Below, in pieces: positions 19,192-27,531 of a stretch of DNA of 32,000 nt (positions within the stretch are counted from its first letter, which is position 1; each line of letters opens with the position of its first letter). A program made the position numbers and the translations under genes. The notes under the pieces are model-generated. The model made no database searches and was not told the origin of the DNA. It saw nothing but the letters and a program-made list of their open reading frames with translations. This DNA comes from Candidatus Saccharimonadota bacterium (GTDB lineage: Bacteria; Patescibacteriota; Gracilibacteria; UBA1369; 2-02-FULL-48-14). The stretch covers positions 480,001-512,000 of the forward strand of contig CP064962.1 of NCBI GenBank assembly GCA_016699145.1. The letters are read 5' to 3'.

Positions 19192-19206
19192 TGATGCCAC
19201 GGAGAA
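19192..19206. repeat. left copy of 15-bp imperfect direct repeat (putative att remnant of the tRNA-Glu 3' end)
   Basis: TGATGCCACGGAGAA versus TGATCCCACGGAGAA at 27494-27508, same orientation, 14/15. Identity stops abruptly on both sides. Confidence 0.55.
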
Positions 19207-19288
19207 GACGCTCGCTTCGCTCTCTATACGGTCGCAAGCTCCCTCACGAACTCCAGAGTTCGATTGTTCTCTTCGAGAACCACACATT

Positions 19289-19309
19289 AAAAATCACCCA
19301 CGAGGGGTG
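19289..19309 (-). terminator. rho-independent terminator candidate for the island operon
   Basis: On the minus strand: CACCC, loop CTCGT, GGGTG, then A TTTTT. It lies ~105 nt downstream of the stop of the 19413-20198 gene. Confidence 0.45.
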
Positions 19310-19412
19310 CTTTCCAATTTGGTGAGCCAATTGTACTCACAGTGGAACACTTTCGTAGAGGATGTGAGAACTTTTGCACAATGCGGAATTCCTACCTCCG
19401 CTTGAAAAATAT

Positions 19413-20198
19413 TTAGATCGAAAGGTGTAGCCGATTTTCAATAGCAGCACTCCTAAGAGTCAATACATCATATAGAAGCTTGTTCAGCTGGGGTTCAACA
19501 ACAGTAAAAGAAATGATCTTAAAGGCTGATGCATGATCTGTAAGCATTTTACGAATATCACGCTGTGCTTTTTGACTCATACCCTTAAAGGTTGTCTTTG
19601 TTGGAGCTAAAAAAGGCTTCTGCGAATCAAAGTAGCCCACAGAAGCACGCATAAATCGACCCATCTCCATCAACTCAGGTTTAGGTTGTGGATAAATTTC
19701 TTCTAGCTTTCTTATGAGGCGGTCGAAAGTCTCTTCAGTAAGCTTCGATAAGAAGTTTAAGATGAATTTCGGGTGCTTTTCCATTGCATCTTTCAAACTT
19801 GCAGATAGTGCACCAGTATTAACTTTTTCTTGAAAAATCGGGAGAACATCTGAGAATACATCCCTATCGGAATTAGCCACCTCTCCTTTGAAGTACTCTT
19901 GTTTATCTATAAGTTTCAGCCCAACAAGAAGCTTAAAGAGAAACCTATTCATTTCAAAAACAATGAACTCTGCTCGGGCTTGGTTTATCTGTCGCAATTG
20001 AGAATCCCTGCCATTCGCCAAAATTTTATCGAAAATAAATAGAGCGATACCGACAACAATTAAATTAGTTAGAATTCCTGTTAAAAAATTCACCCAATAA
20101 TCAACATCAAATGGCTCTGGGTGGATTCGAACAATGAAGAAGGTACAAATAGCAATCAATACCAACATGACGCAAGCAATCCACTTCTGAGATTTCAT
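19413..20198 (-). CDS. hypothetical membrane protein (two N-terminal TM helices plus ~190-aa soluble domain)
   Basis: 261-aa ORF. TM helices are WIACVMLVLIAICTFFIV and LTGILTNLIVVGIALFIF. No recognisable motif follows. Confidence 0.6.
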   Translation of the reverse strand: MKSQKWIACVMLVLIAICTFFIVRIHPEPFDVDYWVNFLTGILTNLIVVGIALFIFDKILANGRDSQLRQINQARAEFIVFEMNRFLFKLLVGLKLIDKQEYFKGEVANSDRDVFSDVLPIFQEKVNTGALSASLKDAMEKHPKFILNFLSKLTEETFDRLIRKLEEIYPQPKPELMEMGRFMRASVGYFDSQKPFLAPTKTTFKGMSQKAQRDIRKMLTDHASAFKIISFTVVEPQLNKLLYDVLTLRSAAIENRLHLSI

Positions 20199-25763: not shown

Positions 25764-25824
25764 TTGTAAGCGATAAAAGTAGTAACCGCATTATACAAAC
25801 TACAATCGTCAAAAGCTCGTAATT

Positions 25825-25833
25825 TGCTACAAT
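25825..25833 (+). promoter_or_regulatory. extended -10 (TGCTACAAT) placed 6 nt from the recombinase ATG; candidate leaderless promoter
   Basis: ...AATTTGCTACAATCTCGCCATG. This is the same nonamer and spacing as upstream of the wHTH gene. Confidence 0.45.
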
Positions 25834-25839
25834 CTCGCC

Positions 25840-27531
25840 ATGAGCAAAGATCTGCTAGTCATTTACACCCGAGTATCAACCGAAAAGCAGTCTGTCGAAG
25901 GAGACAGCATTGAGGCCCAAGAGAAGCAGTGCCGTGCAAAAGCTCAGGCTATGGGATACGAAGACGATCAGATTTTCGTGTTCGAGGAACGGGCCGTTTC
26001 CGGAAGGAAGAACGACCGACCCGCCCTTCAAGACATGTTCCGATTTATTGAAAGTAAAAAAGGTGCAGTAAAGGTGGTTTTAATCAGGGACATAGATCGC
26101 TTAACCAGAAGCGGGGCCAGCATCTACAGTGCCTTAAAAGCTCAACTCCACGAATACAAGGTACAACTGATAGACATCATGGGCCTGATTCAACAGGAGA
26201 AAAACACCCTTGATCACCTAGGATTTTCCTATCCGTGGTCCAATTACTCACCGACGGGCACAGCAGAAACGATGAAAGCCGAAATGGCAAAAGGAGAAGT
26301 GACTAATATTCTCACCCGTTTGATCGGCGAAGAAATAGCTCTCGAGAAAAAAGGCTACCAAGTCCGAGAATCCAATTTCGGTTATCAAAACGAAAAAATT
26401 ACCCTTCGGGACGGGAAAAAGTACACCATACAAGTCCCCCACCCTATTGAAGCAAAATGGGTGAGGAAGATGTTTGAGTTACGAGCCGAAGGGGCACTGA
26501 CCGATAAAGAGATCTGCGAAAGGGTTAACGCGATGGGGTTCCAAACCAGAGAGAGGTTCAAAAGAAGCCGCCAGAACAGAGAGGTCGTGGGCAGTGCTGG
26601 TAAACGCCTCCTCGAACCCAAGATGTTAGAAAAATATATCAAGAAACAGATCTACTGCGGCGTGAGAACCAGCAAGTGGACTCACCAAAAACCTCTAAAA
26701 TGTCCATATGAAGGTCTAGTCAGCATAGAAACATTCAATGCCGCTAACAGAGGGAAAGTCTTTTTAAGAGAATTGCCCAACGGTAGCATGGAAGTCCAGT
26801 ACGACGTCAAAAGGAAAATCCGTTCAAAACATAATCCGCTCTACCCTTTCCGCTTCGTTGTAAGATGCCCTTTTTGTAAAAAGAACTTCAAAGGGTCAGC
26901 CAGCACAGGTAAGTCTGGTGAAACCTTTCCTGCCTATCATTGTGATAGAGCTCATAAGAACTACCGAGTCACCATCGATGAGTTCCACAGGCAAGTTGGG
27001 TATTACTTAGGGGAGATCAAATTCAAACCACAGTTCATCCAGCTTTTCGAAGCTATTGTAAAAGATACATGGATACGGAAACAAAAGGACTTAGTAGAAG
27101 ACTCCATCGATGTCGAAAAGCACCTCACCAACCTGAAGGAGAGGAAAAAAGCTGCCCTTGATAAGATCTTGAAGCTCACCTCACCCATCGTACTTAAAGA
27201 ACTTGAAAAAGAGGTAGAAGATCTAGAAAAACAGATCACTCAAGCCTCAAATACAAGGAACGATCTAGATCTAAAAGAGGAAGAACTCCAAATGTATCTC
27301 AAGTTCGCAAAACGCTTTATGGAACACCCCGGCGAAATGCTCGTCTCAACCGAGAGTCACGAGAAACTCATGCAAACATGGAGCGCTGTTTTCAAAGAAC
27401 TGCCCTCATACGAGGAAATTCTTAATCGAACACCTAAATTAGCGCTTGCCTTTGAGCTGGGACAGCGATCAGAAATTAATATGGAACTAGTGGTGATCCC
27501 ACGGAGAATCGAACTCCGATTTACAGGATGA
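25840..27531 (+). CDS. large serine recombinase (integrase)
   Basis: VIYTRVSTEKQ (catalytic Ser ~13). ...VLIRDIDRLTRS. A recombinase domain is present, plus the zinc ribbon CPFCKKNF...YHCDRAH and a C-terminal coiled coil. The last 41 nt overlap tRNA-Glu. Confidence 0.9.
   Translation: MSKDLLVIYTRVSTEKQSVEGDSIEAQEKQCRAKAQAMGYEDDQIFVFEERAVSGRKNDRPALQDMFRFIESKKGAVKVVLIRDIDRLTRSGASIYSALKAQLHEYKVQLIDIMGLIQQEKNTLDHLGFSYPWSNYSPTGTAETMKAEMAKGEVTNILTRLIGEEIALEKKGYQVRESNFGYQNEKITLRDGKKYTIQVPHPIEAKWVRKMFELRAEGALTDKEICERVNAMGFQTRERFKRSRQNREVVGSAGKRLLEPKMLEKYIKKQIYCGVRTSKWTHQKPLKCPYEGLVSIETFNAANRGKVFLRELPNGSMEVQYDVKRKIRSKHNPLYPFRFVVRCPFCKKNFKGSASTGKSGETFPAYHCDRAHKNYRVTIDEFHRQVGYYLGEIKFKPQFIQLFEAIVKDTWIRKQKDLVEDSIDVEKHLTNLKERKKAALDKILKLTSPIVLKELEKEVEDLEKQITQASNTRNDLDLKEEELQMYLKFAKRFMEHPGEMLVSTESHEKLMQTWSAVFKELPSYEEILNRTPKLALAFELGQRSEINMELVVIPRRIELRFTG

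Follow-up and report, generated by a model that had tools for sequence, protein, structure and literature searches.

How does an enzyme that inserts DNA beside a tRNA gene come to read into that gene, and what does insertion do to the enzyme itself? These questions are raised by a 32,000-nt stretch of contig CP064962.1 (positions 480,001 to 512,000), the whole of which we call the window, in which the open reading frame (ORF) of a large serine recombinase (LSR) on the + strand runs into the 3′ end of a tRNA-Glu(UUC) gene on the − strand. An initial annotation of this DNA had proposed a tRNA-targeting mobile island driven by the neighbouring LSR, a proposal that is supported both by relatives lacking the island and by the overlap of LSR and tRNA genes in 53 of 80 homologous loci. 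What it had missed is that integration splits the recombinase gene. We consider it highly probable that an 8171-bp element was inserted by its own LSR at the extreme 3′ terminus of tRNA-Glu(UUC), dividing the LSR gene as it did so. The borders of the island, the empty site in relatives, the in-frame split of the gene and an architecture conserved across a family are the observations that carry this account.

An empty site in relatives places the borders of the island

The tRNA-Glu(UUC) gene (27491-27565, − strand) is the only tRNA in the window, is intact, and encodes its own CCA end. Recognised already in the initial annotation, it is found by both ARAGORN and Rfam (RF00005, 62 bits), and Rfam reports no other family in the window. 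An exact-match scan with the body of this tRNA gave five metagenome contigs (L084 to L088; L-numbers denote contigs compared with the window), in which the tRNA is identical or 99% identical to that of the window. All five keep tRNA-Glu and the flanking genes: the DUF4349 gene and both right-flank genes are conserved, and tblastn found none of the LSR, the island's cargo genes, the fic gene on its left or the insertion sequence (IS) on its right. It had been expected that fic would lie directly beside the tRNA at an empty site; fic is absent from all five contigs, and in L084 a terminator element stands there instead.

L084 comes from groundwater, is 849 kb long and shares synteny with the window on both sides at ∼68% nucleotide identity, its positions 5667-7238 corresponding to the left-flank genes (window 16358-17877) and 9796-11176 to the right-flank genes (window 29597-30966). 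Between them, a 71-nt element (L084 9484-9554, 90% identical to window 19258-19328) is joined directly to a tRNA-Glu (L084 9546-9620) that is 100% identical to that at window 27491-27565; homology runs through window position 19328 and then jumps to 27491. In a three-way alignment of attL, the L084 attB and attR, attL tracks L084 through the hexamer TGGTGA (19320-19325) and diverges after it, while attR is unlike L084 before TGGTGA (27491-27496) and identical to it from there on. The first hexamer marks the true left junction; the second, read on the tRNA strand, is the CCA, discriminator A73, C72 and U71, and the family consensus described below agrees with the alignment in placing the crossover within it. 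Identity between attL and attR amounts to these 6 bp, or to 8/9 when the next three bases are counted. On this alignment the island spans 19326-27496, 8171 bp, and the left border formerly placed at 19192 is replaced by 19320-19325. The island had also been thought, by eye, to be more AT-rich than its flanks. Computed GC shows no step at the borders proposed then, being 0.489 at 1-17202, 0.448 in the immediate left flank (17203-19319), 0.425 in the island, 0.448 in the immediate right flank (27566-29596) and 0.476 at 29597-32000; composition fails to delimit the island because the adjoining fic and IS regions are likewise low in GC.

The host DNA to the left of the junction (19258-19319, − strand; the B arm) is a conserved terminator element of tRNA-Glu, 90% identical to L084 9484-9545, where it adjoins the tRNA. 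It contains a terminator-like hairpin (19295-19309, − strand) followed by a T run, with a fold z-score of −2.55, and the comparison with L084 indicates that the insertion parted the tRNA from its terminator. The terminator now lies 8.2 kb away, and transcription continuing past the tRNA would yield RNA antisense to that of the LSR, possibly an extra layer of control in the integrated state. Joining 27496 to 19326 gives the predicted attP junction, GGAACTAGTGGTGAGCCAATTGTAC (longer form AATATGGAACTAGTGGTGAGCCAATTGTACTCACAGTGGAAC), and joining the terminator element to the tRNA gives the predicted attB junction, CTTTCCAATTTGGTGATCCCACGGAG (longer form GGGGTGCTTTCCAATTTGGTGATCCCACGGAGAATCGAAC), of which the acceptor and T arm of the tRNA would form the B′ half-site.

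Integration splits the recombinase gene

The LSR gene had been described as directly abutting the tRNA, which is correct as far as it goes: the ORF (25840-27531, + strand, 563 aa in its integrated form) continues beyond and overlaps the tRNA 3′ end by 41 nt. The element's own DNA supplies codons 1-552, and residues 553-563 (IPRRIELRFTG) are an antisense translation of the tRNA. The first clue came from an alignment of homologues, many of which end in ...LVxPRGIEPxxxG, the antisense translation of a tRNA T arm, while others end in a different tail, mutually conserved, that contains W-N-T-F. When the window ORF is joined from 27496 to 19326, it stays in frame for 26 codons up to a stop at 19403-19405, making 578 aa in total. 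By this in-frame reconstruction, the left end of the island (19326-19405, + strand) holds the P′ arm and the detached 3′ end of the LSR gene, namely its last 26 codons and the stop (SQLYSQWNTFVEDVRTFAQCGIPTSA*). The restored tail (…SQLYSQWNTFVEDVRTF…) includes W559 and N560, both of which are invariant in an alignment with 59 full-length homologues. Our reading of the joined sequence is that attP lies inside the LSR gene, and that integration exchanges the C-terminal tail of the enzyme.

The events would be as follows. Recombination would take place inside TGGTGA, which covers the CCA, the discriminator and the first two acceptor bases, and because the exchange falls at the tip of the tRNA, the tRNA would remain intact. 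In the free circle, the gene would encode the 578-aa protein with its conserved 26-residue ‘WNTF’ tail. Integration would carry the 26 tail codons to the left end of the island, at 19326-19405, leaving the body of the gene beside the tRNA to be completed by 11 antisense-tRNA residues, while excision would restore the full gene, the tRNA and its terminator.

The enzyme is a large serine recombinase, with a resolvase-type catalytic domain, a recombinase domain, a zinc ribbon and a coiled-coil all present. Pfam identifies Resolvase (PF00239, E=1.3e-20), Recombinase (PF07508, E=7e-7) and, weakly, Zn_ribbon_recom (PF13408). S13 of the motif RVS13T is invariant in homologues with a tRNA-derived tail and near-invariant in full-length ones, and C343, C346, C368 and H367/H372 are invariant in the alignment of full-length homologues. 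Sequence matches in the PDB are confined to the catalytic domain (TP901-1, TnpX), with none to solved LSRs beyond that domain; Foldseek, given a model of the joined protein, finds full-length matches to the SPbeta, Bxb1 and phiC31 integrases (E=2e-14 to 1.8e-10).

That model, made with AlphaFold2 for the joined 578 aa, has a mean predicted local distance difference test score (pLDDT) of 88, and comprises the catalytic domain, the recombinase domain, the zinc ribbon, a long coiled-coil (helices 397-445 and 449-475) and a further helical region after it. The crossover point falls within predicted helix 548-557, so placed that the tail provides the rest of this helix and another at 559-571, with pLDDT ∼90. 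Modelled in its integrated 563-aa form, the protein shows no secondary structure over residues 545-563, where pLDDT is below 50; the integrated form is thus predicted to lose two confident C-terminal helices.

Annotation goes astray at both pieces of the gene. The NCBI protein for this LSR (P0001) starts at M114 and is 450 aa long; it thus lacks the catalytic serine domain, and Recombinase is the sole Pfam domain in its record. The mechanical ORF list holds a 104-aa frame (19091-19405) that begins in the start region of fic, crosses a relic tRNA copy (described below) and the terminator, and ends in the detached LSR tail. Although almost certainly spurious as a gene, this frame would mask the tail fragment in an annotation. 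Gene callers will mis-annotate such enzymes, as the NCBI fragment illustrates, and island finders that rely on tRNA-length repeats will misplace such borders.

The split architecture recurs across a family

Scanning one genome per species with the LSR alignment gave 80 loci, mostly from Patescibacteria (the candidate phyla radiation, CPR), together with some metagenome-assembled genomes labelled Gammaproteobacteria and some labelled Alphaproteobacteria. In 53 of the 80, the 3′ end of the LSR gene overlaps a minus-strand tRNA (Glu 27, Lys 13, Trp 6, Arg 4, Gly 1, Ile 1, Tyr 1); at seven loci the contig ends at the tRNA and the tail is of the tRNA type, and at 12 the WN tail is intact and no tRNA is adjacent. 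Of the 53 tRNA-associated loci, 26 have the tail signature WN-x-[FLVIMY]-x(5-7)-[WY] upstream on the coding strand, against 1/53 for an opposite-strand control; of the 34 loci with at least 8 kb of upstream sequence, 21 have it. At ∼20 of these loci a clear core of ∼3-10 nt, identical to the tRNA terminus (for example GCGGGC, TTGTCCGCC or CTGTGGGCAA), stands just before the tail, and the join keeps the frame. The sizes of the related islands are 3.8-11.4 kb, with the tail that far upstream.

Among the elements that target tRNA-Glu, the left flank of attL is variable and host-specific, as expected for host DNA, and the P and P′ arms are conserved, with the consensus TTtAAggt..ATAAA..CCt.tt.GTGA for the P arm and gCCcAttGTaCcT.gAaTGGAACAC for the P′ arm. 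The base just after GTGA is systematically G or A in attL and C in attR in these elements, and the crossover must therefore lie within (T)GTGA. An arrangement in which the P arm supplies a new 3′ end to the tRNA was considered and ruled out by this same mismatch straight after GTGA, which puts nearly the whole tRNA on the host side of the crossover. The shared core, 6 bp in the window and TGA alone in L062 and L068, is compatible with a 2-bp crossover.

Intact and split forms are interleaved phylogenetically (L015 and L026, for example, are 76% identical), and are therefore states of the gene rather than clades. In contig L089 the LSR gene is intact and lies among methylase, Toprim and GP88 genes; its ‘LV’ site reads TGGTAGCCC, resembling a tRNA-Glu 3′ end, and we take it to be a putative attP state. 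Terminal overlap that would indicate circularity is absent from contigs L081, L089 and L090. In IMG/VR, a protein-alignment scan found L082, a full-length relative that has no tRNA, and a single weak match besides, and a scan with the consensus P′ arm found none; the plasmids of PLSDB and the phages of INPHARED hold no homologue at E≤1e-30, and neither the LSR nor P0001 had an exact match in the contig index.

Several points weigh against the account given so far. The free form and the present mobility of this element are a reconstruction from assembled sequence, the closest public LSR is 47% identical, and the intact and integrated states are seen in different elements. The crossover is placed no more finely than (T)GTGA, with TGA the minimal common block, and attP has no convincing dyad symmetry by eye. 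An LSR attB normally requires two half-sites, and here the B arm is non-conserved DNA downstream of the tRNA, which is unusual. Nor does the model account for the 12 intact-tail homologues that have no tRNA close by and lie on large contigs carrying the labels Proteobacteria, Bacteroidota or Verrucomicrobia. Lastly, any functional consequence of the tail swap is argued solely from conservation and AlphaFold confidence.

Loci with an intact WN tail and no tRNA include L002-L006, L008, L010, L014, L026, L028 and L046, on contigs of up to 2.4 Mb. In 9/11 tail-intact homologues examined, the crossover Leu is still TTG followed by an acceptor-like run (TTGG motif), which suggests that attP may be retained inside the gene in what seems to be a chromosomal context.

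Other members of the family depart from the common layout. L031 has four tandem detached-tail fragments (…VRQVVLNWNTLSSRFSKYYPVLY…) at 3809, 4513, 5484 and 6489, 700-1000 bp apart and upstream of one LSR, an array that looks like a set of attL-like modules. Relatives in L081 (4340-4410; P0003) and L082 (11620-11700) end in neither a tRNA nor a WN tail; the L081 ORF ends in TGGCAGCGAAAGTGGGAA, which is like a tRNA 3′ end up to the T stem and then unrelated, and neither ARAGORN nor Rfam finds a tRNA.

What the exchange of tails may do

That the tail swap changes how the enzyme behaves, as a state-dependent switch of activity or of directionality, is a possibility we take seriously but do not favour outright; it is suggested by sequence conservation and by the predicted structures. 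The invariant residues, the predicted helices and the retention of the tail argue together that the tail matters in at least one state. In phiC31, the directionality factor contacts a surface to which the helices following the coiled-coil and the very end of the C-terminus both belong (10.1101/2025.05.02.651858), and by analogy a C-terminus that depends on state could plausibly affect directionality here. The most specific form of this idea, which we regard as rather unlikely, is a self-contained switch, in which the WNTF-tailed form, made only from the circle, would drive attP x attB recombination, and the tRNA-tailed form, made only in the integrated state, would be competent for excision or silent. 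If so, the DNA state of the element would set the direction of its enzyme, partly replacing a recombination directionality factor (RDF), and the family, widespread in CPR and targeting the 3′ tips of tRNAs, would be a bacterial serine-recombinase counterpart of the suicidal integrases of archaea.

There are other possible explanations for the same borders. The first is that attP overlaps the gene merely out of compactness, that both forms of the enzyme work, and that directionality comes from a separate RDF. Published LSRs do use separate RDFs, small ORFs without assignment are available in the island (for example 20249-20437), and the LSR ORFs are full-length and uninterrupted in the 53 integrated loci. 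Such neutrality is harder to reconcile with a tail that carries two family-invariant residues, is predicted as ordered helices packed at high confidence, and in 26 islands is preserved whole and in frame at the opposite end, and we think it unlikely, if a respectable alternative.

The second explanation, which we consider less probable again, is that the tRNA-tailed LSR is inactive, as in SSV-like ‘suicidal’ integration, and that exit needs an intact LSR supplied in trans by a related incoming element. The integrated form does lose the invariant W-N motif and has a C-terminus predicted to be disordered, there is archaeal precedent (PMC8371274), and the tandem LSR islands of L055 show that co-residence occurs. 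Set against this, the displacement affects just 26 of 578 residues and leaves the catalytic, recombinase, zinc-ribbon and coiled-coil parts intact, and no decay of the LSR body is seen in 53 integrated copies that have diverged to 35-47% identity.

The third is that the island is a fixed, immobile remnant and its architecture a frozen accident of this genome. In its favour, the databases searched hold no identical or near-identical copy of the LSR elsewhere; yet the ORF is intact with its catalytic S13, the attL and attR cores are identical, the P′ arm fits the family consensus, the tail is intact to its stop codon, and the insertion is missing from all five relatives that have the identical tRNA, so that we judge this explanation improbable.

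Partial copies of tRNA 3′ ends are common, and the one beside the island is older than the insertion

The initial annotation had drawn the island between copies of a 15-bp repeat. The repeat is there: TGATCCCACGGAGAA (27494-27508) matches TGATGCCACGGAGAA (19192-19206) at 14/15 positions in the same orientation, and the altered base in the left copy falls at G69, the partner of C4, so that by reading of the sequence acceptor pairing would break. The accompanying estimate that such a match arises by chance a few percent of the time was fair, a 14/15 same-strand match to the whole tRNA occurring in 5% of 300 order-1 Markov shuffles, and in ∼0.7% of them when restricted to the first 30 nt of the tRNA. 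As a boundary the repeat did not hold up, since the left 15-mer sits in host DNA, 114 bp to the left of the true junction.

Instead of a displaced 3′ end, the left copy is a pre-existing relic of a partial tRNA-Glu outside the island (19192-19254, − strand), which in a gapped alignment consists of the 15-mer at 19192-19206, a 40-nt insert at 19207-19246 and CGAACTCC at 19247-19254. On the tRNA strand it reads GGAGTTCG, the 40-nt insert, then TTCTCCGTGGCATCA, that is, a T arm and acceptor 3′ strand broken in the T loop. L084 has an orthologous and more decayed relic (TGTCCCATCGAAGAATCGAGCTC, 9456-9478) beside the same 71-nt element with no island present; the relic therefore predates the split of the lineages and is unrelated to this insertion.

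In L034, L055, L062 and L080, the final 18 nt of a tRNA recur, exactly or at 17/18 positions, 60-160 nt downstream of tRNA genes, and partial 3′ copies of this kind are frequent in these genomes independently of any LSR. A recurrent CPR layout is a tRNA, a spacer of 60-160 nt and an exact 18-40-nt copy of the tRNA 3′ end (L034 11633-11879; L055 6157-6307; L080 13495-13720; L062 11985-12250). LSR elements are joined to one or the other of the two; in L034, and for the first LSR of L055, the junction is with the partial copy and not with the complete tRNA. These copies could be scars of decayed islands or miniature elements. When 48 tRNA-associated relatives were searched upstream of the LSR for long stretches repeating the tRNA 3′ end, only L036 and L064 had clear ones (exact 16- and 17-nt), which we attribute to how common partial tRNA copies are in these genomes; the true attL of both, marked by the in-frame LSR tail, is 150-230 nt to the right of the repeats. 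A crossover in the T loop, taken from these repeats, was considered and dropped when the empty site and the in-frame tails put attL 150-230 nt further right.

An island from 19192 to 27508 bounded by the 15-bp repeat can thus be set aside as next to impossible: the repeat is real, matches the tRNA 3′ end, has the correct orientation and finds same-register exact 16- and 17-nt counterparts in L036 and L064, but L084 joins the homologue of 19258-19328 to the tRNA, so that 19207-19319 is host DNA, and has its own orthologous relic without an island, the attL of L036 and L064 lies to the right of their repeats, and partial copies 60-160 nt downstream of tRNAs are common without an LSR.

In L055, two LSR islands stand in tandem (4594-10664). 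The first LSR (4594-6315) runs through a partial copy into a complete tRNA-Lys, and the second (8939-10630) reads into tRNA-Glu, its detached tail lying ∼100 nt past the tRNA-Lys (near 6400-6540).

Relation to known systems

Like the integrases of phiC31, Bxb1, SPbeta and A118/LI, the enzyme has a serine catalytic domain, a recombinase domain, a zinc ribbon and a coiled-coil, and its att sites share very short identity. Unlike these, it has attP within its own ORF and exchanges its last 26 residues on integration, its target is the 3′ tip of a tRNA rather than a protein-coding gene or an intergenic site, and it has an extra C-terminal helical region (∼480-571) past the coiled-coil.

The closest resemblance in layout is to the SSV-type tyrosine integrases (SSV1, pTN3, pT26-2), in which attP lies in the integrase ORF and the pieces of the gene end up at opposite ends of the element (PMC8371274). 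The same review, from 2021, describes self-disrupting recombinases as exclusive to Archaea, the known cases all being tyrosine recombinases (PMC8371274). The present system shares an attP in the recombinase ORF and a gene split to opposite ends, a layout found in 26 related islands. It differs from the SSV type (PF16795, archaeal) in its serine fold and its bacterial host (Candidatus Peregrinibacteria, with relatives mostly in Patescibacteria), in that only a short C-terminal tail is removed so that the catalytic and DNA-binding domains stay together, and in that the truncated gene gains a substitute tail from tRNA antisense. Self-splitting in the archaeal style is thereby extended to a bacterial LSR family with dozens of members across Patescibacteria. 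A different comparison is with the integration-dependent immunity of mycobacteriophage BPs and its relatives, where attP lies in the 3′ part of the repressor gene and integration alters the C-terminus of the repressor, forming a genetic switch (PMC4557955, PMC3694055). Here too attP is within the 3′ part of a gene whose C-terminus is changed by integration, but the split gene is a serine integrase, whereas in BPs it is a repressor, accompanied by a tyrosine integrase. A split repressor of the BPs type, which loses a C-terminal degradation tag on integration, is not seen in our island, where the XRE regulator (21842-22066) is intact and far from both junctions.

As a small cargo island beside a functional tRNA, with an empty site in relatives, the element is like the classical tRNA islands. 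It is unlike them in having a 6-bp core only, with no tRNA repeat of ∼15-50 nt, and no tyrosine integrase, the serine recombinase being the only recombinase within 19320-27496; unlike both these islands and tycheposons, its recombinase gene converges on and overlaps the tRNA. The 3′ ends of tRNAs are classic territory for tyrosine integrases. We found only two precedents for serine recombinases there, the LSRs of tycheposons and the filamentous phage phiRSM. In phiRSM, a small serine recombinase of the resolvase type uses the 3′ end of tRNA-Ser as attB, and we know of no report of an attP inside its recombinase ORF. Tycheposons resemble the present element as small cargo islands beside tRNAs that stay functional, and in 27 of 937 an LSR takes the place of the tyrosine recombinase (10.1101/2020.12.28.424599). 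Our literature search, whose coverage was incomplete and which is thus weak evidence of novelty, found no description of a serine integrase with attP in its own gene, nor of LSR elements in CPR.

Control of directionality is the central question for serine integrases, and a natural C-terminus that depends on the state of integration opens it to direct test. CPR bacteria are hard to manipulate genetically, and the system could yield compact integration tools, including for these bacteria.

Cargo and neighbourhood of the island

From its left end, the island encodes on the − strand a 261-aa protein with an N-terminus that is hydrophobic by eye and no Pfam or PADLOC family (19413-20198), a 62-aa ORF from the ORF list (20249-20437), a 253-aa protein with a C-terminal winged helix resembling Trans_reg_C (20521-21282; PF00486 E=1.1e-5, just under the gathering score) and a further small ORF from the list (21556-21765). 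The XRE-type helix-turn-helix (HTH) regulator that follows has 74 aa and is on the + strand (Pfam HTH_3, E=2.7e-11). Most of the remaining cargo is a 1237-aa protein (22050-25763, − strand) with an N-terminal HNH-like nuclease, TPR repeats (Pfam TPR_14) and a PIN domain of the TPR-GreAB-C-PIN type, the match to PF20698 being borderline at 25.8 bits against a gathering score of 27.8. Its HNH-like residues 11-160 match the PADLOC models PDC-M68A, SduA and HNH effector, and the main cargo of the L033 island is a homologous TPR-PIN protein of 1275 aa. From these matches, the window protein is probably a defence or conflict protein, and together with the regulators we infer that it may form a defence module. 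Among the cargo of other islands are a Type ISP restriction enzyme, ResIII helicases, an OLD-family nuclease, prim-pol and VapE-type primases. The family is one of small cargo islands; defence-like genes occur in several of them and genes for replication in some.

Remnants of an IS3-family element (27758-29308) flank the tRNA on its 5′ side, comprising an HTH orfA (27758-28309) and overlapping rve fragments (28314-28823 and 28790-29308). The stretch 27566-29596 is absent from L084-L087, where the tRNA lies ∼176 nt from the homologue of window 29558-29854, and the IS3 stretch is a second, independent insertion at the same tRNA. On the other side of the island, the fic gene (18159-19124) matches the PADLOC models SoFic and PDC-S04, and is absent from L084 and L087; its position is taken by unrelated ORFs in L084, and in L087 the DUF4349 gene abuts the tRNA. 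Given this varying content beside the tRNA, the DNA downstream of it is variable and defence-rich even without the LSR island.

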